From Gemmatimonadota bacterium (GTDB lineage: Bacteria > Gemmatimonadota > Gemmatimonadetes > Gemmatimonadales > GWC2-71-9): a stretch of 30,285 nt of DNA. Position 1 is the stretch's first letter. Every line of letters begins with the position of its first letter. The translations under genes were made by a program, and so were the position numbers. Shown here piece after piece: positions 4,392-16,780 of the stretch. A model generated the notes under the pieces. That model did not search any database. It was not told the origin of the DNA and was given only the letters and a program-made list of their open reading frames with translations. The stretch lies in assembly GCA_041491785.1 (NCBI GenBank), contig JBGPVQ010000001.1, forward strand, positions 1-30,285, written 5' to 3'.

Positions 4392-6044
4392 ATGCGCCTG
4401 ACCCCGGCGGCACGCGCCCTCATCCCGGCGGCCGCCCTCCTCGTTTCGACCACTCCCTCGCTCGTGGCGCAATCCGACACCTGGGCACTCATCAACGCGC
4501 GGATCCAGACCGTAACGCACGGAGTGATCGAGAAGGGCACCATCATTATTCGGAAGGGACTGATCGAAGCGGTCGGTCCGGCGGTCACCGTCCCCCCGGA
4601 TGCCCGCGTCCTCGACCTGTCGGGGAAGACGGTCACCGCGGGCTTGGTGGATCTCACCTCCTCGCTCGGGCTGGCGGCTCCTCCCGCCGGAGGCGGCGGT
4701 GGGCCCGGGGGCGGGGGGGGAGGAGCGGCCGCACCGGCTCCCGGCGCCCCCCGGCCGGGGCTCGAGCCGGATCGGGACGTGACCCGCGAACTCAAGGTGG
4801 CCCCCGGGGACGTCAAGCCGGTGCGCGATCTGGGCGTCACCTCGGTGCTGGTGGCGCCGTCGCGGGGACTGTTCCGCGGCCGGTCCGCGCTGATTCCGCT
4901 CCGGGACAGCGTCGATGCGAAGGATGTCATCCGCGCCCCGGTCGCCGAGCACATCGGTTACCAGGGCGCGCAGGGTGACTACCCCGCCACGCTGCTGGGG
5001 GTGATCGCCTACCAGCGGCAGTCGCTTTACAACGCGCAACGGCAGGGAGTTCTGCTCGACCGGTACAAAGCCAATCCGCGCGGCATGGAGCGGCCCGAGA
5101 ACGATGCGGGCCTGGATGCCCTGGTTCCGGTGGTGCGGGGGCAACTTCCCGCGTTCATCGACGCGAACAACGAAAACGAGATCCGGCGCGCGGACCGGCT
5201 TGCGAAAGAGTTCAAGCTCAACGCCACGATCGTGGGGGCCACCGAAGGGTGGCAGGCGCTGGACGCGCTCGCGGGGCATGGAGTGGTGGTGTCGGTCAAC
5301 TTCCCGCAGCCGACCTCGGTGACCGGGTGGTCGTATCGACTGAGCCAGCGCCGCCCCCTCGGCGATAGCGCGGCTTCGGCCCGGGAAGGGCAGAAGCTGA
5401 TCGAAGGCAATGCCGCTGCGCTCCACAAGGCCGGCGTCAAGTTCGCGCTGGCCTCGGGGGGAACCCGGGACTTCGTGATCAACGTGCGAAAAGTGGTGGC
5501 CGCGGGCCTTCCGGCGGACGTCGCACTTCAGGCGGTGACCATCCGCGCCGCCGAGATGGCCGGCGCGGGAGAAATGCTGGGAAGCGTCGAGACCGGCAAG
5601 ATCGCGAACCTGGTGGTGTCGAGCGGCGACATCCTCAGCGATTCCGCCAAGGTGAGTGCGGTGTTTGTCGACGGGATCCGGTACGAGGTCGCGCCGCCTC
5701 CGGCGGCACGGGCTGGCGGCAGCGGACCCGGCGGGCCGGCGGCGCAAATCGGCGGGAGCTGGGCCATGACGCTCACTTCCCCGCAGGGCCCGCTGGATCT
5801 CACCGTCACGATCACCCAGAGCGGAGCGTCGTTCGGCGGAACCATGGTCAGCCAATTCGGGAGCCAGGAGATCGGCGACGGCCAGATTTCCGGCCGCACC
5901 GTGACGTGGACCACTACCCTCAGTTTCGGCGGCCAGACCGCCACCCTCAACTACCGCGCCGAAGTGGACGGCAACCGGATGACCGGCTCCGCCGACCTCG
6001 GCAGCTTCGGCAGCGGCACCTTTACCGCGGAGCGGAAGCCATGA
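4392..6044 (+). CDS. Secreted amidohydrolase-fold protein lacking metal ligands, with a C-terminal all-beta domain (550 aa)
   Basis: GGAGG RBS, signal peptide; N-terminal LINARIQT..IEKGTIIIRKGLI and C-terminal GSVETGKIANLVV amidohydrolase beta-sandwich motifs; the HxH position reads GLVDLTSSL. Confidence 0.85.
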   Translation: MRLTPAARALIPAAALLVSTTPSLVAQSDTWALINARIQTVTHGVIEKGTIIIRKGLIEAVGPAVTVPPDARVLDLSGKTVTAGLVDLTSSLGLAAPPAGGGGGPGGGGGGAAAPAPGAPRPGLEPDRDVTRELKVAPGDVKPVRDLGVTSVLVAPSRGLFRGRSALIPLRDSVDAKDVIRAPVAEHIGYQGAQGDYPATLLGVIAYQRQSLYNAQRQGVLLDRYKANPRGMERPENDAGLDALVPVVRGQLPAFIDANNENEIRRADRLAKEFKLNATIVGATEGWQALDALAGHGVVVSVNFPQPTSVTGWSYRLSQRRPLGDSAASAREGQKLIEGNAAALHKAGVKFALASGGTRDFVINVRKVVAAGLPADVALQAVTIRAAEMAGAGEMLGSVETGKIANLVVSSGDILSDSAKVSAVFVDGIRYEVAPPPAARAGGSGPGGPAAQIGGSWAMTLTSPQGPLDLTVTITQSGASFGGTMVSQFGSQEIGDGQISGRTVTWTTTLSFGGQTATLNYRAEVDGNRMTGSADLGSFGSGTFTAERKP

Positions 6045-7420
6045 TGCTTACCGCGCTACTTGCGCTCGCTGCGCAGAATCCTCCCGCAGCGCAGGGAGAC
6101 ACCACTCGCCGGCCGGCCGCGATGCCGGTGTACGTGGCGCCGGTTCCCCCGGCCGCCACCCTGGTGGCCATCACCAACGCCACCATTCTCACCGCGAGTC
6201 ACGGGACGATCGAAAAGGGAACCATCCTCATCCGGAACGGGAAGATCGCCGCGATCGGGAAGGACCTCGTTGTTCCCGCGGGCGCCCAGGTCATCGACGG
6301 CAACGGCAAGTACGTCATGCCCGGCATCATCGACGCCCACTCCCACAGCGCGAGCGAGGCGATCAACGAGGGAACCCGCTCGATCACCGCGCAGGTCCGG
6401 ATCGAGGACGTCCTCAAGGAGGACGCCATCAGTCTGTATCGGCAGCTCGCCGGCGGGGTTACCAGCGCCAACGTGCTGCACGGCTCGGCCAATACGATCG
6501 GCGGCCAGAATGCGGTGATCAAGCTGCGCTGGGGGCTTCCGGCGGACTCGCTGCTCTTCGCGGGGGCACCCCCGGGAATCAAGTTCGCCCTGGGCGAAAA
6601 CGTGCGACAGACCAACGGCCCGCAGATCCCGGGGCGGCCGCAGCGCTATCCGCGGACCCGGATGGGAGTGGAGGAGCTGCTCCGCGACGCCTTCACCCGG
6701 GCCAGGGAGTACCAGGCCGGGTGGAAGGCCTACGACGATGCCAAGAAGTCCCTCAAGAAGGGGCAGGCGGAGCCGCTCCCGCCGGCGCGGGACCTCCAGC
6801 TCGACGCCCTGGTCGAGGTGCTGGAAGGAAAACGCCTGGTCCACGCGCACTCCTATCGTTCGGATGAAATCCTGATGCTCCTCAAGGTGGCAAAGGATTT
6901 CGGATTCCGGATTGCCAGTCTGCAGCACGTACTCGAGGGCTACAAGATCGCCGACGAAATCGCGGCCGCGGGCACCGGAGCGTCGACCTTCGCCGACAAC
7001 TGGGCCTACAAGCTCGAGGCCTTCGATGCGATCCCCTTCAACGCCGCGCTCATGGCGGAGCGCGGGGTCAAGGTCTCCGTCAATTCCGACTCCGACGAGC
7101 GGGCCCGCCGGCTGTACCAGGAGGCGGCCAAGGCGATGAAGTACGGCGGGGCCTCCGAGGAAGAGGCCATCCGGATGATCACGCTGAACGCCGCCTGGCA
7201 GTTGGGCATCGACAAGCTGACCGGCTCCATCGACGTCGGGAAAGACGCCGACATCGCGATTTTCAGCGGCCACCCCTTCGCGCCGGCCAGCCGGGTCGAA
7301 ATGACCCTGATCGACGGCCGGGTGTTCTTCGACCGCACCAAGGCCCCGACGCTCGAGAGTCTGATCGAGCAGCTCAAGCGGCGGCCGCGAGCCAACACCA
7401 CCAGTGGAGGTGCCCTGTGA
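6041..7420 (+). CDS. Secreted amidohydrolase with intact metal-binding motifs (459 aa)
   Basis: ATG 6041 overlaps the upstream TGA (ATGA); PGIIDAHSHS (HxH), IKFALGEN (Lys), VHAHSYR, LQHVLEG, NSDS; GSIDVGKDADI. Confidence 0.9.
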   Translation: MMLTALLALAAQNPPAAQGDTTRRPAAMPVYVAPVPPAATLVAITNATILTASHGTIEKGTILIRNGKIAAIGKDLVVPAGAQVIDGNGKYVMPGIIDAHSHSASEAINEGTRSITAQVRIEDVLKEDAISLYRQLAGGVTSANVLHGSANTIGGQNAVIKLRWGLPADSLLFAGAPPGIKFALGENVRQTNGPQIPGRPQRYPRTRMGVEELLRDAFTRAREYQAGWKAYDDAKKSLKKGQAEPLPPARDLQLDALVEVLEGKRLVHAHSYRSDEILMLLKVAKDFGFRIASLQHVLEGYKIADEIAAAGTGASTFADNWAYKLEAFDAIPFNAALMAERGVKVSVNSDSDERARRLYQEAAKAMKYGGASEEEAIRMITLNAAWQLGIDKLTGSIDVGKDADIAIFSGHPFAPASRVEMTLIDGRVFFDRTKAPTLESLIEQLKRRPRANTTSGGAL

Positions 7421-8718
7421 TCCGGCGCATCCTGTCGTCCGCGTTCGGGCTGATCGCGCTCGGCGCCCCGCTCGCCGCCCAGGGCGCGCCCGCCGCGCCG
7501 GTGCCGAGCCGCTCCGCCGTGTATGCGATCACCAACGCCACCATCGTTCCGGTGGTCGGTCCGAAGGTATCCGGCGGCACCGTCGTGATCCGCGCCGGGA
7601 AGATCGAAGCCGCCGGCGCGGGCGTCGCCACGCCGGCGGGCGCCACCGTGATTGACGGCACCGGCCTCTTCGTCTATCCCGGCATGATCGATTCCGGAGA
7701 CCGCATGGGCCTGGTTGAAATCGGCTCGGTTCCGGGCGGCCAGGACACCCAGGAACTGGGACAATACAATCCGCAGGACGCCGTGCTCACCGCGGTCAAT
7801 CCGAGCTCGGTCCACATCCCGATCACTCGCGCCAACGGCGTCACCAGCGCGGTCACCTCCGCCGAGGGCGGAATGATCCAGGGCTGGGCGGCGTTGATCG
7901 ACCTGGCCGGGTGGACCCCCGATGAGATGGCGGAGAACGGACGACTCGCGATGGTGATGACCTTTCCGCGGGTCGGCGGCGGTGGGCGCCGCGGCGGCTT
8001 CCGGGGGGGGCAGGCGCAGGGCGATGCGGCGGAAACCCAGAATCGCCAGGTGCGAGAGTTGTATGACTATCTGCGGAACGCCAGGGCCTACAACGAGCGT
8101 CCCAACCCGGTGCCGCAGAACCTCTCCTATGCGGCCCTCGGCCCGGCGCTCCGAGGAGAATCGCCGGTCATCTTCGACGTGCAGACTGAGGGGCAGATCC
8201 GGGGTGTCCTCGCGCTGGCGGATACCTTCAAGCTCAAGGTGGTGCTTCGGGGGGCCAACGAAGCGTGGATGCTGGCCGATACTCTGGCCGCCCGGAAAAT
8301 CCCGGTGGTCGTGGGCCCGATGACGGCGGTCCCCGAGGGGGACGCGCCCTACGACGCGATCTACGCCAATCCCGGGACACTGGCGAAGGCGGGGGTGCAG
8401 ATCGCCTTTCAAACCAACGACGGCGGAGAGGGCGACGCCCGGAATCTGCCGTACAACGCGGCTTTGGCCGAAGCGTACGGGCTCGACCCCGATGAGGCAC
8501 TCCGGGCGGTGACCATCAATCCCGCCGGGATCTGGGGCGTCGCCGACCGGCTGGGCAGCATCGAGCCCGGCAAGGTGGCCAATCTCTTCACTACCACCGG
8601 CGATCCGCTGGACGTCCGCACCCAGGTGCGCCACGTGTTCATTCGCGGCCAACTGCAACCCTGGGACGACCGGCACACACTGGAATACCAGAAGTGGCGG
8701 AGCCGGCCCAAGCCCTGA
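7417..8718 (+). CDS. Secreted amidohydrolase-fold protein lacking metal ligands (433 aa)
   Basis: GTGA coupling to the upstream stop, signal peptide; ITNATIV, PGMIDSGDRMG (no HxH), GSIEPGKVANL. Confidence 0.85.
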   Translation: MIRRILSSAFGLIALGAPLAAQGAPAAPVPSRSAVYAITNATIVPVVGPKVSGGTVVIRAGKIEAAGAGVATPAGATVIDGTGLFVYPGMIDSGDRMGLVEIGSVPGGQDTQELGQYNPQDAVLTAVNPSSVHIPITRANGVTSAVTSAEGGMIQGWAALIDLAGWTPDEMAENGRLAMVMTFPRVGGGGRRGGFRGGQAQGDAAETQNRQVRELYDYLRNARAYNERPNPVPQNLSYAALGPALRGESPVIFDVQTEGQIRGVLALADTFKLKVVLRGANEAWMLADTLAARKIPVVVGPMTAVPEGDAPYDAIYANPGTLAKAGVQIAFQTNDGGEGDARNLPYNAALAEAYGLDPDEALRAVTINPAGIWGVADRLGSIEPGKVANLFTTTGDPLDVRTQVRHVFIRGQLQPWDDRHTLEYQKWRSRPKP

Positions 8719-8735
8719 GGTCCGAAGAGGTCGCC

Positions 8736-10853
8736 ATGCCTTCGCATAATCGTCTCCCTGCCCTGCTGCTGTCTCTCACGCTGCTAGCCCCGGCTGCAGC
8801 GCTTCGCGCCCAGCAGCCGGACCGCTTCACCGGACACTGGGTGGGGGCCATCAGGCTGCCCGGCCAAGAGCTCGGGTTCGATGTGGATCTCGCGCGGGGC
8901 GCCGGGGGCTGGACCGGGGACATTTCGATACCGGCCCAAAACCTCAAAGACCTCCCGCTCACCGGCCTCGCGATCTCGGGAGACTCCATCCGGTTCTCGA
9001 TTGGTGGCATCCCGGGCGATCCGACGTTCGTGGGTGCGCTCGCGCCCGACCGGAAGACCGCCGCCGGGGCATTCTCGCAGGGCGGCGGAACCTTCCCGTT
9101 CACCATGCACGGAGCCCTTGCCCCTGCCGACGCGGCGCGGGAGGCGCTACGCGGCTTCGACCGCTTCGTGGACTCCGCGATGGCGGCGTGGAAAGTGGTC
9201 GGGCTCGGCCTCGGCATCGTGGTGGACGGCCAAGTGGTGTATGTCCGGGGCCATGGATTTCGGGACCTGGAACGGAAGCTTCCCGCGACCGAGAGAACGC
9301 TCTTTGCGATCGGGAGCTCGAGCAAGGCGTTCACCGTCTACGCGCTCGGCACGCTGGTAGACCAGGGCAAGCTCGAATGGGATAAGCCGGTGATCACCTA
9401 CATGCCGGAGTTCCGGCTCTACGACCCCGCGGCCACACTCCGGATTTCGCCGCGTGACCTGGTCACCCACCGCTCCGGGCTGCCGCGGCACGATCTGGTC
9501 TGGTACAACAACTTCACGTCGACCCGGGAGGACCTGATCAGCCGTATCGCGTACCTCCCGCCGAACAAGGATCTGCGGGAGACATTTCAGTACAACAACC
9601 TGATGTTCCTCACCGCCGGAGTGCTCGCCGGGCGGATCATGAACAGCAGCTGGGAAGACGCCATCCGCCGGCTGGTCTTCCAGCCGCTCGGGATGAACAG
9701 CAGCAATTTCTCGGTGGCCGAATCGCAGAAGACCGCCGACTGGTCGCGGGGGTACGAGGTGCGGAAGGACACCATCCGGGCGATGCCGTTCCGGAATATC
9801 GATCTGATCGGTCCCGCCGGCTCGATCAACTCGAATGTTGCAGACATGGTCAAGTGGATCGGAATGCACCTGGCGGGAGGAGTGGTGGACGGCAAGCAGG
9901 TCATCGCCCGCACCACCCTCAACGACATGTACGCCCCGCACATGCCGATCGGCGGAATGCCGAGCGACAAGGATCTCGGCGCGGCCAACTACGGCATGGG
10001 GTGGTTCCTGACCAGCTATCGCGGGCACTACCTGGTGCAGCACGGCGGGAATATCGACGGCTTTTCCGCGATGGTCGCCCTCATGCCACAGGATCGAATC
10101 GGGATCGTGGTTCTGAGCAACCAGAACGGTGCGGCCCTGCCGGCGCTGATCCGGAACCATGCGATGGATCGCATCCTGAGCCTCCCGCCCCGCGATTGGA
10201 ACGCCGAGGCCCTGGCCGCGGCGAAGCGGGCCGAGACGGCGGGCCGGGAGGCCGAGAAGAAAAAGATGTCGGTGCGGGTGACCGGCACCCAGCCGTCGCA
10301 TCCGCTCGCCGAATACGCGGCCGAATACGCCCACCCGGGGTACGGTACCCTCACCGTGGCGCCGGATGGGGATCACCTGGTGGCCACCTACCATTCGATC
10401 AGCACTCCGCTGGAACACTGGCACTACGACGTGTTCAACGGGCTCCGCAACCCGGCCGATCCCACCTTCGAGGACATGAAGTACAACTTCCGCTCGAACA
10501 TGAAGGGGGACATTGATGCCGTGGCGGCGCCGTTCGAGCCGAGCGTGGATCCGATCGTGTTCGTCCGGCAGCCCGACAAGCGTCTGGTGGACCCCGCGTT
10601 CCTGCAGGGGCTCACCGGGCGCTACGCCCTGTCCAACGACACCGCAAACGTGATCCTGCAGGGAGCCCGCCTCGTCGTGGTGTTGCGCGGCCAGCCGCCG
10701 TCCACCCTGGAGCCGGACCGGCGCACCGAGTTCAACCTGAAGGGGCTCGCGGGCTACAGCGTGGAGTTCGTCCTGGACGCCCAGGGAGCGGTCACCGAGC
10801 TGCGGCTCAAACAACCCAGCGGCGTGTTTGCCGCCAAGAGGGTGGCGCCGTGA
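8736..10853 (+). CDS. Secreted serine hydrolase, class C beta-lactamase/D-aminopeptidase family, with an N-terminal beta domain and C-terminal DUF3471-like domains (705 aa)
   Basis: ATG 8736 with GAGG RBS; SxxK (IGSSSKAF), YxN (FQYNN), HGG (VQHGGNIDGF), LVTHRSGL; signal peptide. Confidence 0.9.
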   Translation: MPSHNRLPALLLSLTLLAPAAALRAQQPDRFTGHWVGAIRLPGQELGFDVDLARGAGGWTGDISIPAQNLKDLPLTGLAISGDSIRFSIGGIPGDPTFVGALAPDRKTAAGAFSQGGGTFPFTMHGALAPADAAREALRGFDRFVDSAMAAWKVVGLGLGIVVDGQVVYVRGHGFRDLERKLPATERTLFAIGSSSKAFTVYALGTLVDQGKLEWDKPVITYMPEFRLYDPAATLRISPRDLVTHRSGLPRHDLVWYNNFTSTREDLISRIAYLPPNKDLRETFQYNNLMFLTAGVLAGRIMNSSWEDAIRRLVFQPLGMNSSNFSVAESQKTADWSRGYEVRKDTIRAMPFRNIDLIGPAGSINSNVADMVKWIGMHLAGGVVDGKQVIARTTLNDMYAPHMPIGGMPSDKDLGAANYGMGWFLTSYRGHYLVQHGGNIDGFSAMVALMPQDRIGIVVLSNQNGAALPALIRNHAMDRILSLPPRDWNAEALAAAKRAETAGREAEKKKMSVRVTGTQPSHPLAEYAAEYAHPGYGTLTVAPDGDHLVATYHSISTPLEHWHYDVFNGLRNPADPTFEDMKYNFRSNMKGDIDAVAAPFEPSVDPIVFVRQPDKRLVDPAFLQGLTGRYALSNDTANVILQGARLVVVLRGQPPSTLEPDRRTEFNLKGLAGYSVEFVLDAQGAVTELRLKQPSGVFAAKRVAP

Positions 10854-11860
10854 TGCCGTGCCGCGTCGCGTTGCTCGGCGCTGTCCTCGCGACGGCCGGG
10901 CCGGGCCAGAGTCCACCGCCGCTTCCCCCGGTCGAATGGCGCGGGCTCATCGGCGAATACGGCAGGGACACGACGACGCGCGTCATGATCCTCGAACAGG
11001 ATGGCCGCCTGCTTGCGCGCTTCGATTCGGCGCCATCCGTCGGCTTGCGCCGAACTGGGAAGGACCTTTACCGCGGACCGGCCGCGGGGGCCCACCCCGA
11101 GGTGACGTTCCGATTCCGCCGACGCGCCGACGGACGGGCCGCGGCGGTCGCGGTCGGCGATTCGACCTGGCCGCACCGCGCCTTGGGACCGGAGGACGGC
11201 TCGGTGTTCCGCATCGTTCCGGTCCGGCCCGTCGAGGACCTCAGGAGGGAGGCGCTGGCGGCTACGCCGCCGGCCGAGCCGGGAGACTTTCGAGCGAGCG
11301 ACCTGGTCGAACTGGTGCGGCTCGATCGCACAATCAAGCTCGACATCCGATACGCCGGGACGGGCAACTTTCTCGGCAGGCCGCTGTACGGCCAGGCCCG
11401 GGCCTTTCTGCAGCGGCCCGCGGCGGAGGCACTGCTGGCCGCCCACCGTCGGCTCGGTGCGCGCGGCTACGGCCTGCTGATCCACGACGGGTACCGGCCC
11501 TGGTACATCACCAAGATGTTCTGGGACGCCACGCCACCGGCCCAGCATGAATTCGTCGCCAATCCCGCCACCGGCTCCCGGCATAACCGGGGTTGCGCGG
11601 TGGATCTCTCGCTCTACGACCTCAAGACCGGGCGCCCGGTCGAGATGCCCGGCAGCTACGACGAGTTCTCCCGCCGGTCGTATCCCAGCTACCCGGGAGG
11701 AACCTCGCGGCAACGGTGGTACCGCGAGCTCCTCCGCAGCGCGATGGAGGCGGAGGGATTCGCGGTTTTCACGTCGGAATGGTGGCACTTCGACTTCAAG
11801 GACTGGAAATCGTATCGCATCGGCAACACGCCGTTCGAGAGGCTGAACGGTCCCGCCTGA
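10850..11860 (+). CDS. ddpX: Secreted D-alanyl-D-alanine dipeptidase (M15D, VanX/DdpX family) with an N-terminal beta-domain extension (336 aa)
   Basis: DIRYA, DGYRP, SRHNRGCAVD (SxHxxGxAxD) and EWWHF (ExxH) zinc motifs; GTGA coupling to the upstream stop. Confidence 0.9.
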   Translation: MMPCRVALLGAVLATAGPGQSPPPLPPVEWRGLIGEYGRDTTTRVMILEQDGRLLARFDSAPSVGLRRTGKDLYRGPAAGAHPEVTFRFRRRADGRAAAVAVGDSTWPHRALGPEDGSVFRIVPVRPVEDLRREALAATPPAEPGDFRASDLVELVRLDRTIKLDIRYAGTGNFLGRPLYGQARAFLQRPAAEALLAAHRRLGARGYGLLIHDGYRPWYITKMFWDATPPAQHEFVANPATGSRHNRGCAVDLSLYDLKTGRPVEMPGSYDEFSRRSYPSYPGGTSRQRWYRELLRSAMEAEGFAVFTSEWWHFDFKDWKSYRIGNTPFERLNGPA

Positions 11861-11863
11861 CGA

Positions 11864-11882
11864 TGACCGGCCCCGCCGGTCA
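11864..11882. terminator. Hairpin between convergent genes; possible bidirectional terminator
   Basis: TGACCGGC-CCC-GCCGGTCA perfect 8-bp stem; no strong U-tract on either side. Confidence 0.35.
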
Positions 11883-13124
11883 GTTCGGCGGGTGCACCCC
11901 CGCACCACCGTAATTCCGCCCATCCCCCAGCCGGGGGCCGTTGAACGGCACCGCGGTGTTGTTGGTCCGCGAGATGAACTGGCGGATGCTCCCCGCGAAG
12001 GGTGAGGTCTTGGCGTGCTTCCCGAACGGATCGGTGTACCAGACCTCCCCACCATCGGCGTTGTCGACCCGATTCGAGTTGATGTCCACGAAACGGGAGA
12101 CCCCGTTGAATCCTGAGCGAGGGTCGTTGTAGGTGATTCCCGGAATCGTGCCGTTGCTCGTGCTGGTCGCGCAGGGCCCGCCGCGGGCCTTGTCCCCGTT
12201 GGCCTCGGTCTCGTAGCACACCGCAATCGGGCGGCCGGTGATGTCGGCAAGGCTTGGATCGTAGAACCGGCTGGGGAAATTCACCTGAAAGTACGGGTTG
12301 AACGAGACCAGGGTGTGCCCGTCGTCGCGCCGGATATCGGTGTGGGTTTGCCAGCTCTCGTGGAGACCATTCGAGAAACTCGAGTTCTGGCCCGGGGTGA
12401 CCAGCACGAAGCGATCCACACAATTGCGGTCCGGAATCACCCGCTGCCCACCGCCGTCCGGAGAATTGGCCGGCGTCGGCGGCCCGACCTCAATCCGCGC
12501 GCCGTCGCAGGTGCGGGTGAATCCTCCCGGCCGCCCGATCGGATTCATGGTGGTGATGTGCAGTTCGGTCCCGTCGCTACACTTGATGTGATACACCAAC
12601 TCGTGGAGGTTGTTGGTGAACGCGTCCTTGGAGTGGGTGCCCTGGTGGAGCTTGACCAGAATGTCGCACTTGATGGTGAGCACCGCGTCGGCGATGCCGT
12701 CGAGATGCATCTCCACGTCGTTCTCCCACTCCACCTTGTGACCGACGTGGTCTTCGTGCCGCATGCCGGTCGGATCCCAGGTGTCCAGCTGCTCGTTGGC
12801 GAAGCCGAAGGGGATATCCCCGACGCTGCCGTAAAGGTGCGAACCGTGCGGATCCCGGCCGTGCTCGTGGCCGAAGGTGCACCCGGTCTCCGGGTCCACC
12901 GGCGGATGCCAGGTGGGGTAGAGCTTCCCGTCGGGCCCGACGGTCGAGTACTTGTTGTGAACCGCCACCGGACAGGTGTCGCCCGGCCCCGGGGTCCAGG
13001 TCACGTAGGCGACGCTGGGCCGCGCGTTGGCGCGCGGATCGTCGAGGCCGGCGGTCTTGTCGCCGTTGCACCCGGCGAGAACCACGATGCCCGCGATTCC
13101 CAGCGGGGAGAGCAGCTTCTGCAC
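11880..13124 (-). CDS. Uncharacterised His/Cys-rich lipoprotein (414 aa)
   Basis: GTG 13124 with GAGGAGG RBS; lipobox VLAG-C19; 20 His and 8 further Cys; motifs WHPPVDPETGCTFGHEHGRDPH, RHEDHVGHKVEW, KLHQGTHS. Confidence 0.85.
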   Translation of the reverse strand: MQKLLSPLGIAGIVVLAGCNGDKTAGLDDPRANARPSVAYVTWTPGPGDTCPVAVHNKYSTVGPDGKLYPTWHPPVDPETGCTFGHEHGRDPHGSHLYGSVGDIPFGFANEQLDTWDPTGMRHEDHVGHKVEWENDVEMHLDGIADAVLTIKCDILVKLHQGTHSKDAFTNNLHELVYHIKCSDGTELHITTMNPIGRPGGFTRTCDGARIEVGPPTPANSPDGGGQRVIPDRNCVDRFVLVTPGQNSSFSNGLHESWQTHTDIRRDDGHTLVSFNPYFQVNFPSRFYDPSLADITGRPIAVCYETEANGDKARGGPCATSTSNGTIPGITYNDPRSGFNGVSRFVDINSNRVDNADGGEVWYTDPFGKHAKTSPFAGSIRQFISRTNNTAVPFNGPRLGDGRNYGGAGVHPPN

Positions 13125-13140
13125 GAGAGCCTCCTCTGAC

Positions 13141-13791
13141 TTAGTGGCGGGTGATGCCGAGGCCGAGTTGGAACAGGAGCGCGTGGCCGCCCGCGGGCAG
13201 TTTCCGCCGCTCGAATGAGACCGCATCCTTCGATTCCAGCCAGAGCGCGCCGCTCGAAGTCCCCAATGCGTTGAGGTAGGGCACCACCGAGAGCCCGGGG
13301 TTTACCCGAACCTCGTAACCAGTGCCCACGACCAGCGCTACCGCCTGGGAGGTGACCGCGTCACCGTCCTTCCACGCCCGCCAGCGGCTCACCCCGGCGC
13401 CGAATCGCAGGAAGTAGCCGTGGCGCTCGGTGGGGTACCACCAGGCGCCACCGGTCAAGGTGAGCAGGCGCCGCTTCCCCTCGTCGCCGCTCCGTTGCCA
13501 GGCGCCGCCCTCCACGCCGAGGAGCATCTTGCGGTTGATCGTCGTGCCGGCGCGCAGGTACCCGGAGGTGCCCTGTTCACTCTCGTGATTGCAGATACTG
13601 CAATGGAGACTTCCCGCCCCGGTGCCCAGGCCGGCGCCGAGCCAGAGTCCCTTGCGGGCATCGGCGGGACCGCCCACCAGGATTCCTCTCCGCGCGGCGG
13701 TACCGGCGCTGATCGCGCCGCCCTGTCCCTCCAAGGGCACCGCCGCCGCCATTATACCGACGAGGGCAACGAGACCGGATACGGTCCGCAT
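13141..13791 (-). CDS. Putative small outer-membrane beta-barrel protein (216 aa)
   Basis: Signal peptide; alternating Gly/aromatic amphipathic strands (LWLGAGLGTG, GYFLRFGAGVS, VGTGYEVRV, LFQLGLGITRH); CxxC (CSIC) in the first loop. Confidence 0.7.
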   Translation of the reverse strand: MRTVSGLVALVGIMAAAVPLEGQGGAISAGTAARRGILVGGPADARKGLWLGAGLGTGAGSLHCSICNHESEQGTSGYLRAGTTINRKMLLGVEGGAWQRSGDEGKRRLLTLTGGAWWYPTERHGYFLRFGAGVSRWRAWKDGDAVTSQAVALVVGTGYEVRVNPGLSVVPYLNALGTSSGALWLESKDAVSFERRKLPAGGHALLFQLGLGITRH

Positions 13792-13878: not shown

Positions 13879-13894
13879 GCAGATGATGTGCCAG
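13879..13894 (-). promoter_or_regulatory. Candidate sigma54 (-24/-12) promoter for the barrel + lipoprotein pair; also a TGGCA-N7-TGCCA dyad
   Basis: Minus strand CTGGCAC-ATCAT-CTGC has the exact GG-N10-GC spacing of the YTGGCACG-N4-TTGC consensus, about 90 nt upstream of ATG 13791. Confidence 0.45.
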
Positions 13895-14074: not shown

Positions 14075-14479
14075 TCAGGTGCGCTCCCAACCCCGTTCGA
14101 CCTGGAGTGCAACGACTCGCGCCCGGATTTTCTCCCGGATTTCGCGGACCCGGTCGAGGCTCTGCCCCTCGGGATCGGGGAGGGGCCAGTCGAGCCGTAT
14201 CAGGCCCGGCACGACCGGACAGGCTTCGCCGCACCCCATCGTCACCAGGACTTGGGCCGAGCCCGCCAGATCGTCGGTGAGGAGGCGCGGCCGCGCCGGC
14301 GCGAGATCGACCCCGATCTCGGCCATCGCCGTCACCACCTCGGGATGAATTCGGTCACCCGGCGCGGTGCCGGCGGAGATCGCCCGCGCCAGCGCCGGAT
14401 CGGCGAGGAGATTGAACAGCGCCGCGGCCATCTGGGATCGGCCGGCGTTGTGCACGCAGGCGAAGATCACGGTGGTCAT
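14075..14479 (-). CDS. arsC: Arsenate reductase, thioredoxin-coupled LMW-PTP type (134 aa)
   Basis: P-loop CVHNAGRSQMA (CX5R), resolving cysteines in TMGCGEACP, DW.L.DP motif; ATGA-coupled to acr3. Confidence 0.93.
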   Translation of the reverse strand: MTTVIFACVHNAGRSQMAAALFNLLADPALARAISAGTAPGDRIHPEVVTAMAEIGVDLAPARPRLLTDDLAGSAQVLVTMGCGEACPVVPGLIRLDWPLPDPEGQSLDRVREIREKIRARVVALQVERGWERT

Positions 14480-15525
14480 CGGCGGAGATACCAGCCCTTG
14501 GTCCGGGTGACGATCCGGACCACCGACAGCATGACCGGGACTTCGATCAGGACGCCCACCACCGTGGCGAGTGCCGCGCCGGAGCCGATGCCGAAAACGC
14601 TGATTGCGGTCGCCACGGCCAGCTCGAAGAAGTTACTGGCGCCGATCAAGGCGGAGGGACACGCCACCGCGTGGGATTCTCCGACCGCTCGGTTGAGCAG
14701 GTACGCGAGGGTGCTGTTCAGATACACCTGGATCAGGATCGGAACCGCGAGGAGCGCGATCGTGAGGGGCTGCGCCAGGATCCGAGCCCCCTGAAACCCG
14801 AAGAGGAGCACCAGCGTCGTCAACAGCGCCCCGAGCGAAAGCGGGTGGAGGACGGCGCCCACCCGGGCAAGGGCCGCCCCACCTCCCCTGGCCAGCAGCA
14901 CCCGGCGCCAGATCTGGGAGACAATCACCGGGAGGATGATATAGAGGGCCACCGACAGCAGCAGGGTGTTCCAGGGAACGGTGATGGCCGAGAGGCCGAG
15001 CAGCAGACTGACGATCGGGGCAAAGGCCACCACCATGATGGCATCGTTGAGCGCCACCTGGGTGAGCGTGAAGTTGGGGTCCCCGTCGCTCAAATTGCTC
15101 CAAACGAAGACCATGGCCGTGCAGGGGGCGGCCGCCAGAAGAATGAGGCCGGCGATGTAGGAATCGATCTGTCCCGCAGGAAGGAGCGGCGCGAAGAGGC
15201 CGCGGATAAAGATCCACCCCAACAGGGCCATCGAGAATGGTTTGACGGCCCAGTTCACCAGGAGCGTGACCCCCATGCCACGCCAGTGCTCACGGACCCG
15301 ATGAAGCGCGCCGAAATCGATCTTCAGCAGCATCGGCACGATCATGAGCCAGATCAGGACCGCGACCGGCAGGTTGACTTCCGCCAGCTTGGCCCGGCCG
15401 AGGAACCCAAAGACCGGCGGCATCAACTGGCCCAGCCCGACCCCGACGCCGATGCTGAGGAACACCCACAGCGTCAAGTACCGCTCGAATACCCCCAGGG
15501 GGCTGGATGCCGACCGATCGGTCAC
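14476..15525 (-). CDS. acr3: Acr3-family arsenite efflux transporter (349 aa)
   Basis: FERYLTLWV, NWAVKPFSM, AAAPCTAMVFVWS, ASNFFELAVA and GVLIEVPVML motifs; about 10 hydrophobic segments. Confidence 0.95.
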   Translation of the reverse strand: MTDRSASSPLGVFERYLTLWVFLSIGVGVGLGQLMPPVFGFLGRAKLAEVNLPVAVLIWLMIVPMLLKIDFGALHRVREHWRGMGVTLLVNWAVKPFSMALLGWIFIRGLFAPLLPAGQIDSYIAGLILLAAAPCTAMVFVWSNLSDGDPNFTLTQVALNDAIMVVAFAPIVSLLLGLSAITVPWNTLLLSVALYIILPVIVSQIWRRVLLARGGGAALARVGAVLHPLSLGALLTTLVLLFGFQGARILAQPLTIALLAVPILIQVYLNSTLAYLLNRAVGESHAVACPSALIGASNFFELAVATAISVFGIGSGAALATVVGVLIEVPVMLSVVRIVTRTKGWYLRR

Positions 15526-16352
15526 CCGGACGCCCGCGCCGGCTTCCTCCCCCGCACGAACGCCCCCATGAACCGCCCCTCGACCGCGGTGGCAACCACA
15601 TCCACGTCGAGCCCCGCACCCTCGAGGAAGGCCCGTGCGTCATCGATCCGGTAGATCCGGGTGGGCTCGATCTCGACCTCGGTGAACCCGGTCTCCTGGA
15701 GGAGTGCCTTGAATTCCGCTTCCTCGAGCGCGCCGGCCACGCACCCCACCCAGAGCTCGATGCTGCGCCGGATTTCCGGCGGCACCTCGCCACGGACCAC
15801 CACGTCGGACACCGCGAACCGCCCCCCGGGGCGGAGGACGCGGAACGCTTCCCGCAGCACCTTGCGCTTGTCGGCGGAGAGATTGATGACGCAGTTCGAG
15901 ATGATGACATCGACCGACTCGTCGGGCAGCGGAATGTTCTCGATTTCCCCTTTCAAGAATTCGACGTTGCTCACCCCGGCCTTCCGCTGGTTCTCCCGCG
16001 CGAGGGCCAGCATCTCGTCGGTCATGTCCAGGCCGTAAGCCCGCCCGGTGGGTCCGACTCGGCGCGCCGAAAGAAGAACATCAATTCCCCCGCCACTCCC
16101 CAGGTCGAGGACGGTTTCCCCCGGACGAAGCTCCGCCAGCGCGGTCGGGTTGCCGCACCCCAGCGACGCGAGCACCGCCTTCTCGGGAATCACCGCCGTT
16201 TCGGCGGCGGAGTAGAGGTCCGAGGAGATGGGATCCGCGCTCCCGCCGCAGCAGCTGCTCCCGCAGCAGCCGGCGTCCTTCCCTTCGAGAACCCGCTTGG
16301 CCGCCTCCCCGTACTTTGCCCGGACCGTGTCCCTGACGGTTCCTTCACTCAT
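15522..16352 (-). CDS. arsM: Arsenite S-adenosylmethionine methyltransferase (276 aa)
   Basis: ATG 16352 with GGAGG; [35 protein letters not shown]; N-terminal GCCGSSCCG. The ORF-track start at 16526 is an over-extension. Confidence 0.93.
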
Positions 16353-16365
16353 GGCGCCTCCGCGA

Positions 16366-16395
16366 ATTGACCAACGTTTCTTGATGCATTGACCA
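16366..16395. promoter_or_regulatory. Second ArsR-like operator between arsR and arsM
   Basis: ACCAA-CGTTTC-TTGAT (16370-16385), one mismatch from the ATCAA-N6-TTGAT core upstream of arsR; flanked by an ATTGACCA direct repeat (16366, 16388). Confidence 0.5.
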
Positions 16396-16398
16396 TCG

Positions 16399-16418
16399 AA
16401 AAAGGGACCGCGCCGTCC
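16399..16418 (-). terminator. Weak terminator-like element right after the arsR stop
   Basis: GGAC-GGCGCG-GTCC followed by CTTTTT on the minus strand; the stem is only 4 bp. Confidence 0.25.
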
Positions 16419-16744
16419 TAGGCGCAGCACCGGCTGGGGACCCACCCCTTGATCGGCGCGCAGCACTCGGTCAGCACCCCGGCCAGCTCCTCCACCCGCT
16501 CGTGGTTGAGCCGATAGTGCACCCACCGGCCATCACGGCGGTCGAGCACCAGCCCGGCTTCCTTGAGCGCTTTCAGATGGAAGGACAGCCGCGACTGCCC
16601 CGTGTCCAAGGCGTCGGTCAGCTCGCAGACACAGCGCTCCCCGCCCCGCAGGAGGTCCACCAGCTGCAGCCGGGTGGGATCCGACAGGGCGTGGAACACC
16701 CGGGCCACCCGCTTGAGATCCGACACCGCCGTCCGGGACGTCAT
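16418..16744 (-). CDS. arsR: ArsR/SmtB-family As(III)-responsive repressor (108 aa)
   Basis: FHALSDPTRL, ERCVCEL, SRLSFHLKALKEAGLV, RDGRWVHYRL; C-terminal ECC...RCCA; heads the ars operon. Confidence 0.93.
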   Translation of the reverse strand: MTSRTAVSDLKRVARVFHALSDPTRLQLVDLLRGGERCVCELTDALDTGQSRLSFHLKALKEAGLVLDRRDGRWVHYRLNHERVEELAGVLTECCAPIKGWVPSRCCA

Positions 16745-16751
16745 GAGCGGC

Positions 16752-16780
16752 AATATATCAATACTTGTTGATATATCAAC
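16752..16780. promoter_or_regulatory. arsR promoter/operator
   Basis: ATATATCAA-TACTTG-TTGATATAT (9-bp inverted repeat, 16753-16776) overlapping a perfect 14-bp palindrome GTTGATATATCAAC (16767-16780); minus strand TTGATA, 16 nt, TATATT, 7 nt, ATG. Confidence 0.8.

Follow-up and report, generated by a model that had tools for sequence, protein, structure and literature searches.

In LPMOs (AA9/AA10), the copper site is a histidine brace. The first residue of the mature protein is a histidine, the amino terminus itself contributes to the site, and the fold is an immunoglobulin-like beta-sandwich. LPMOs are secreted, disulfide-stabilised and beta-rich, and fusions with CBMs, fn3 and dockerin-type modules recur among them. 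A lipoprotein encoded in the DNA analysed here (hereafter the window, a stretch of 30,285 nucleotides from a Gemmatimonadota bacterium with a G+C content of 68%) shares these general traits, including a His-based metal site that is established in LPMOs and proposed for the lipoprotein. It differs from them in several respects. The family has no N-terminal histidine, its mature N-terminus being either a predicted lipidated cysteine or another domain; far more of its histidines are conserved; and it is the C-terminus rather than the N-terminus that is both conserved and free (in about 85 of 101 longer forms). Membership of the histidine-brace enzymes was thus rejected, since the mature N-terminus of the window protein is Cys19 and the domain is C-terminal in its fused relatives. 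Pfam gave no match for any of 46 family members, and the LPMO-type beta-sandwich was not among the folds listed by Foldseek and VIA.

Two other described systems bear on the locus. In PcoB/CopB, too, a His-rich protein of the periplasm or cell surface goes with an outer-membrane barrel. In contrast to that system, the lipoprotein has no cupredoxin or multicopper-oxidase signature, only a single HxH and no Pfam match; PcoB itself is matched only as a generic barrel (Z 2.8), and no cop or cus genes lie nearby. The other is Slam (type XI), in which a SlipAM/DUF560 outer-membrane translocon is encoded with the lipoprotein; the barrel neighbouring the lipoprotein here is OmpA/OmpW-like and has only about 190 mature residues. 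A search for PF04575 (Slam) returned nothing in the lipoprotein's own genome, with control genomes equally silent.

The features of the locus are collected in the table below. The GTG start of the lipoprotein gene lies 16 nt beyond the stop codon of the upstream barrel gene.

Features of the lipoprotein-barrel locus and its surroundings (positions in the window)
Feature	Position	Strand	Basis or remark
Multi-His lipoprotein gene, 414 aa	11880..13124	(-)	Open reading frame and translation; stop codon 11880-11882
Shine-Dalgarno-like GGAGG	13130..13134	(-)	5 nt 5' of the GTG start; read from the sequence
Signal peptide with lipobox LAGC, residues 1-19	13068..13124	(-)	Translation
His-motif region, residues 56-174	12603..12959	(-)	Conservation, invariant alignment columns, coevolution
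Extreme C-terminus H411-A-P-N414	11883..11894	(-)	Conservation
Outer-membrane beta-barrel gene, 216 aa	13141..13791	(-)	Adjacency, AF2, Foldseek
C64-x-x-C67 of the barrel, end of predicted strand 1	13591..13602	(-)	99% conserved, n=75
Sigma-54-like -24/-12 element TGGCACATCATCTGC, TGGCAC-N5-CTGC	13879..13893	(-)	About 88 nt 5' of the barrel gene
arsR - arsM (SAM methyltransferase) - ACR3 efflux - arsC (LMW-phosphatase type)	14075-16753	(-)	Complete-looking cluster 5' of the barrel gene
Two amidohydrolases, 719-aa beta-lactamase-family protein with DUF3471, VanX-type M15 D-Ala-D-Ala dipeptidase	5906-11860	(+)	

The lipoprotein begins with MQKLLSPLGIAGIVVLAGC and runs through ...VVLAGC to Cys19 with Asn at +2, a sequence that fits the lipobox pattern [LVI][ASTVI][GAS]C of signal peptidase II substrates. 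Cys19 would thus be the lipidation site. At least 128 of 151 relatives carry a signal peptide followed by Cys under a strict pattern, and most of the others do so when judged by eye. Twenty histidines are present (residues 56, 73, 86, 88, 93, 96, 123, 126, 129, 140, 160, 164, 174, 179, 189, 255, 261, 270, 370 and 411), giving a His content of 4.8% versus 1.7% in nine neighbouring Pfam-supported genes (P ~1e-4 for the clustering of 15 of the 20 within the 134 residues from 56 to 189, binomial; P ~4e-5 for the content). There are eight cysteines besides Cys19, and neither CxxC nor CxxCH occurs in any of the 414 residues. An earlier sequence-only reading of this DNA had described the lipobox with its Asn at +2, the number and clustering of the histidines, and the eight further cysteines without CxxCH, and translation, a recount and a residue scan agree with it on all of these.

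The same reading had suggested four possible disulfides. Among 397 sequences, cysteines are lost strictly in pairs: C51 with C82 (2/2), C153 with C182 (3/3), C206 with C235 (18/18) and C303 with C318 (17/17), and a single chance case is the only co-loss across pairs. This perfect pairwise co-loss bears out the suggestion and indicates four sequential disulfides, predicted at 51-82, 153-182, 206-235 and 303-318, which in turn argues for an oxidising, extracytoplasmic location. Because all eight cysteines would pair in this way, no conserved Cys is left as a ligand.

Conservation was assessed on 397 full-length members that were profile-aligned and thinned at an identity of at most 65% to 143 sequences, which are 35-65% identical to the window protein. 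H56, H73, H86 and H88 are conserved in all 143 sequences and H160 and H174 in 99%; H126 (93%), H129 (91%), H411 (88%), and H123 and H164 (82% each) follow. The remaining nine (H93, H96, H140, H179, H189, H255, H261, H270 and H370) are conserved in at most 36%. The conserved histidines fall in short motifs, namely H56, W72-H73-P74, G-H86-E-H88-G, R122-H-E-D-H126-x-G-H129-K130, H160-Q-G-x-H164-S-x-D167 and H174-E175, and the His-motif columns are invariant in alignments A1, A2 and A4. Other residues are retained with them: positions conserved in at least 95% include W72, P74, R122, E124, D125, K130, Q161, D167, N172, R228, E256, W258, R286, R344, Q382, P413 and N414, and E175 is near-invariant in the family. 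This is the pattern of an active site, as judged from the alignment, and not that of a low-complexity His tract. Within the stretch GHEHGRDPHGSH, which had been listed as part of the dense His cluster, the first two histidines are conserved, while the later ones, H93 and H96, vary, as do H140, H179 and H189 further along the cluster. The proposal of a metal site was to fall if the histidines were not conserved or if the protein matched a known non-metal family; instead, six of them are invariant and five are conserved at 82-93%.

None of the known metal-site signatures is matched by the lipoprotein. A c-type cytochrome was rejected for the lack of a CxxCH haem-attachment motif, and a multicopper oxidase, which has four HxH/HCH motifs and cupredoxin domains, because there is one conserved HxH (H86-E-H88) and no Pfam match. 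HEH, HEDH and HELVYH are present and HExxH is absent, so the protein was not assigned to the zincin metallopeptidases either.

Searches of Pfam-A, NCBIfam and PDB sequences with both the single sequence and a profile gave no match to the lipoprotein, and Pfam recognised none of 46 aligned family members. The impression that no known catalytic family can be recognised thus holds. The ESM Atlas returned no usable match, and literature searches on the motifs and the topic yielded nothing relevant to the family. The family is nevertheless large, with at least 1,755 clusters at 90% identity (word-indexed search, E 1e-3 or better) and at least 918 representatives at 50% identity (exhaustive search). 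All named clusters are annotated as ‘hypothetical protein’ and derive mostly from Gemmatimonadales MAGs, with one Deltaproteobacteria MAG and one Candidatus Levybacteria MAG as named sources beyond Gemmatimonadota; the habitats are soil, sediment, sludge and freshwater metagenomes. We thus describe a family without profile model, solved structure or literature, which is new as a family and unmatched in fold, and whose function is so far putative.

An AF2 model of the lipoprotein, built from a 46-sequence alignment, has a mean pLDDT of 92 and a pTM of 0.88, and disorder is limited to the signal peptide and the linker. The His motifs form blocks with a pLDDT of 93-98. The model is thus confident, and it places the conserved histidines in well-ordered regions. 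Residues 30-125 are rich in loops with short helices, and residues 129-405 consist mostly of long beta strands. In the PDB, Foldseek found nothing above noise (best E-value 0.047, TM below 0.2). With VIA-align, the highest Z among 48,161 representative chains was 5.0 (rmsd 3.8 Å, 118 residues aligned), with generic 8-10-stranded closed barrels, outer-membrane or soluble, as top rows covering model residues ~125-405; according to the VIA guide, a Z below 8 may mean a mere common arrangement. Small closed barrels (the NHBA C-domain, fHbp, hemophilin/HphA, nitrobindin and avidins), some of which are surface lipoproteins as well, align only to the core at 125-405, with Z at most 5.0, only 100-130 of ~280 residues aligned and no sequence relationship. 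Since the VIA scores stay under 8, we call the core barrel-like and the fold unmatched but not proven new, and treat the predicted structure as a beta-barrel-like core (~125-405) with an N-terminal loop cap that is unmatched in the PDB.

Coevolution was analysed by mean-field DCA (Meff ~226; 69,378 pairs), in which invariant positions are not directly scorable. Two of the disulfides, C206-C235 (rank 15) and C303-C318 (rank 34), and several hairpins were recovered as internal controls. The His motifs are linked to each other by several pairs: E87-V127 (rank 24) connects GHEHG with HEDHVGHK, H129-K158 (rank 88) connects HEDHVGHK with the HQGTHS strand, K158-E175 (rank 74) connects that strand with H174-E175, and H129-E175 (rank 132) connects HEDHVGHK with H174-E175. 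P70-E132 (rank 146) joins the loop before WHP to the strand after HEDHVGHK, and H93-P412 (rank 80) joins the loop after GHEHG to the C-terminal tail. D49-H411, T50-G409, R90-E132, R90-W133 and G66-E87 are also among the top 80 pairs, so that the C-terminal tail co-varies with residues 49-50 and 93. In the model, strands 129-141 (up), 151-160 (down) and 173-182 (up) are adjacent, and H129, H160 and H174 would all lie at one common end of them. Together, the coupled pairs and the strand order of the model support a single composite site that would include the His motifs and the C-terminal tail.

The lipoprotein ends with ...V-H-A-P-N, in which P413 and N414 are conserved in at least 95% and H411 in 88%. 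In about 85 of the 101 longer relatives (500-1,530 aa), the domain forms the very C-terminus and ends at profile position 425, the last one; the domain thus seems to need a free C-terminal end. Outside Gemmatimonadota, the domain is found as the C-terminal part of secreted multi-module proteins. The accompanying modules are Dockerin_1 (four proteins), CBM96 (two), CBM_2, CBM60 together with a GDSL esterase, CBM_4_9, PA14, ricin-type lectin, F5/8 type C, CHB_HEX_C, beta-helix/NosD, PG_binding_1, FG-GAP, fn3, Big, TSP3, RTX and CARDB. A recognised glycan-binding or cellulosomal module occurs in ~13 of ~72 long forms scanned, none of which carries a protease, nuclease or redox domain; other partners (fn3, FG-GAP, Big, TSP3, RTX) are generic extracellular modules. 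This company is typical of a carbohydrate-active catalytic module, though many partners are generic, and carbohydrate-binding modules as fusion partners suggest that the domain is catalytic. We also noted a group of long relatives (P0287, P0291-P0295, P0299-P0302) that match only profile positions ~46-318, often with TSP_3 repeats or fn3. This span covers the His motifs but lacks the last third of the domain with its HAPN end, other sequence following instead, and these proteins may represent a shortened or diverged variant of the domain.

The gene upstream of the lipoprotein encodes a small outer-membrane beta-barrel of the OmpA-TM/OmpW-like type. About ten long strands make up its AF2 model (pLDDT 86), whose C-terminal end resembles a beta-signal, and Foldseek matches the model to OmpA-TM, OprG, NspA, Ail and OmpW (E ~5e-6, probability 1.00, TM up to 0.74). 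The match to Pfam OMP_b-brl is weak (22.5 bits, under the curated cut-off of 28.7). The barrel differs from OmpA-TM, OmpW, OprG, NspA and Ail in its very short loops and in a CxxC that is invariant in alignment A3 along with E94 and W98. The lipoprotein gene has a relative of the barrel next to it at 74 of 80 loci from genomes and at 54 of 80 from metagenomes (128/160 together); this relative is co-directional and upstream in 97 loci, with a median gap of ~27 nt, and divergent in 31. The loci without a barrel mostly hold non-lipoprotein and fused forms of the domain.

Within the phylum, the lipoprotein is encoded in 43 of 201 sampled genomes, usually as a single copy, and it is present throughout some genera and missing altogether from others. 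Of the same 201 genomes, 99 encode the barrel family, often in multiple copies of up to six each; this tally takes in the unpublished genomes G057 and G157, on which nothing else stated here depends. All genomes with a full-length lipoprotein also have the barrel; the reverse is untrue. A third conserved gene emerged neither from sequence clustering nor when 88 genes that flank the Gemmatimonadota cassettes were surveyed with Pfam, the most frequent family being amidohydrolase with 6 of 88, and these 88 genes include none for metal homeostasis, glycoside hydrolases, sugar transporters or redox partners. In the window, the VanX-type M15 dipeptidase gene is convergent with the lipoprotein gene, and the hydrolase neighbours are shared with the closest clade alone. 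At other loci, amidohydrolases and peptidases (M8, M15, M19, S15) are loosely recurrent near the cassette.

The sigma-54-like element upstream of the barrel gene, TGGCACATCATCTGC, is the only one-mismatch match in the window. A similar site precedes 3 of 74 related barrel genes, one of them in a near-identical strain, and a sigma-54 promoter is thus probably not a feature of the family. The k-mers enriched upstream proved to be coding-sequence artefacts and one subclade element, with no Fur- or Zur-like operator among them. That element, TTTTTTCATGCAAaCTGGCGC..CGCCCGcGCAA, lies ~120 nt 5' of the barrel gene at five loci (L045, L068, L073, L118, L138) but does not occur in the window; it could act as promoter or operator.

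Our preferred reading, which we hold tentatively and rate a little short of an even call, is that the lipoprotein represents a new metalloenzyme domain of the extracytoplasmic space, with glycans as its probable substrates, which in Gemmatimonadota takes the form of a lipoprotein accompanied by a dedicated outer-membrane barrel. The conservation, the pairing of the cysteines, the confident and ordered model, the adjacent barrel and the fusion partners are what the analysis shows; that the protein binds a metal, is catalytic and acts on glycans, and what the barrel does for it, we infer. Weighing against this reading are the small share of long forms with carbohydrate modules (~13 of ~72), the lack of glycoside hydrolase, sugar transporter and redox partner genes among the 88 flanking genes, and the single HxH with no match to a known metal-site signature. 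The protein would be a lipid-anchored, disulfide-stabilised catalytic domain in which the six invariant histidines (56, 73, 86, 88, 160, 174) and the five near-invariant ones (123, 126, 129, 164, 411) converge at one end of the core. E124, D125, D167, R122, K130, E175 and the free C-terminal tail would join this cluster to form a putative metal centre, and the number of candidate ligands suggests that the site may be bi- or multinuclear. An extracellular polymer is the probable substrate, with a polysaccharide as the likeliest kind. The Gemmatimonadota enzyme would be a tethered lipoprotein, putatively co-expressed with the OmpA/OmpW-like CxxC barrel, which may dock it, display it or take up its product. 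A bolder version, distinctly improbable in our judgement, sees a new-fold class of polymer-active metalloenzymes whose multinuclear His centre would be completed by the protein's own C-terminus (...V-H-A-P-N-COOH), as a C-terminal counterpart of the N-terminal histidine brace of LPMOs, and which in Gemmatimonadota would be mounted on the outer membrane via the CxxC barrel.

The many conserved histidines would also be expected of a protein that binds or traffics a metal (a chaperone, scavenger or buffer for Cu, Zn or Ni), with the barrel as an outer-membrane metal channel, loosely as in PcoB/CopB. The invariant CxxC, Glu and Trp of the barrel and the self-contained two-gene organization of the cassette are in line with this alternative, and a metal chaperone was one of the two roles offered by the sequence-only reading. 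We consider it unlikely, and a chaperone less likely than an enzyme, because the His motifs are fixed in a predicted rigid structure together with four invariant Arg, one Lys and several acidic residues, a set larger than mere binding would call for; because none of the 88 flanking genes serves metal homeostasis and no Fur- or Zur-like operator emerged from the upstream k-mer search; and because fusions to CBMs and dockerins fit an enzyme. The barrel family, moreover, is multi-copy and occurs also in genomes without the lipoprotein. These same fusions would suit an enzyme that uses no metal at all, in which acid/base catalysis and substrate binding would fall to His, Arg, Lys, Asp and Glu, as in an anionic-polymer lyase or an esterase. 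The invariance of R122, R228, R286, R344 and K130 beside the histidines speaks for such an enzyme, but eleven conserved histidines would be unusual for pure acid/base chemistry, and we regard a metal-free enzyme as improbable.

The only structural likenesses, those to small closed barrels (Z 2.6-5.0, 100-130 residues aligned), would point elsewhere, to a surface-exposed ligand-binding barrel of haemophore- or lipocalin-like type that works with the outer-membrane barrel and whose histidines coordinate haem or a different cofactor, or hold an organic ligand. These Z-scores lie under the tool's noise level of ~8, however, and the invariant polar residues are far more numerous than one axial ligand requires; with no CxxCH in the protein and no recurrent TonB-dependent receptor or haem-uptake genes nearby, a ligand-binding role appears quite unlikely. 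The position of the cassette directly 3' of arsR-arsM-ACR3-arsC on the same strand could make it part of an arsenic detoxification system, and its closest relatives (L002, L004, L005, L006, L052) show this arrangement too. The adjacency is confined to these loci, about 5 of 80 and all in one close clade of at least 73% identity, and in the window a 283-nt gap separates arsC from the barrel gene. An arsenic function is therefore most improbable, and the cassette was not assigned to the ars operon.

If the metalloenzyme reading is true, the domain would define a large and widespread family of extracellular metalloenzymes, with at least 918 clusters at 50% identity, and its recurrent fusion with dockerins and with modules that bind cellulose, xylan and other glycans would qualify it as a candidate for a new class of carbohydrate-active enzymes, of relevance to the carbon turnover of Gemmatimonadota and to biomass conversion. 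The value of the lipoprotein family lies in its being a well-defined and readily testable target.

The CxxC barrel family is itself undescribed and may show how the phylum mounts or services its envelope enzymes. Paralogues of the barrel adjoin genes for other secreted enzymes: Sortilin/BNR proteins of ~1,070 aa (two genomes), an M14 carboxypeptidase, a cupin and an M19 dipeptidase. It is thus possible that the barrel partners with envelope enzymes of the phylum more generally. One such paralogue is found at G000:C14:2343-2957 (L163/L164).
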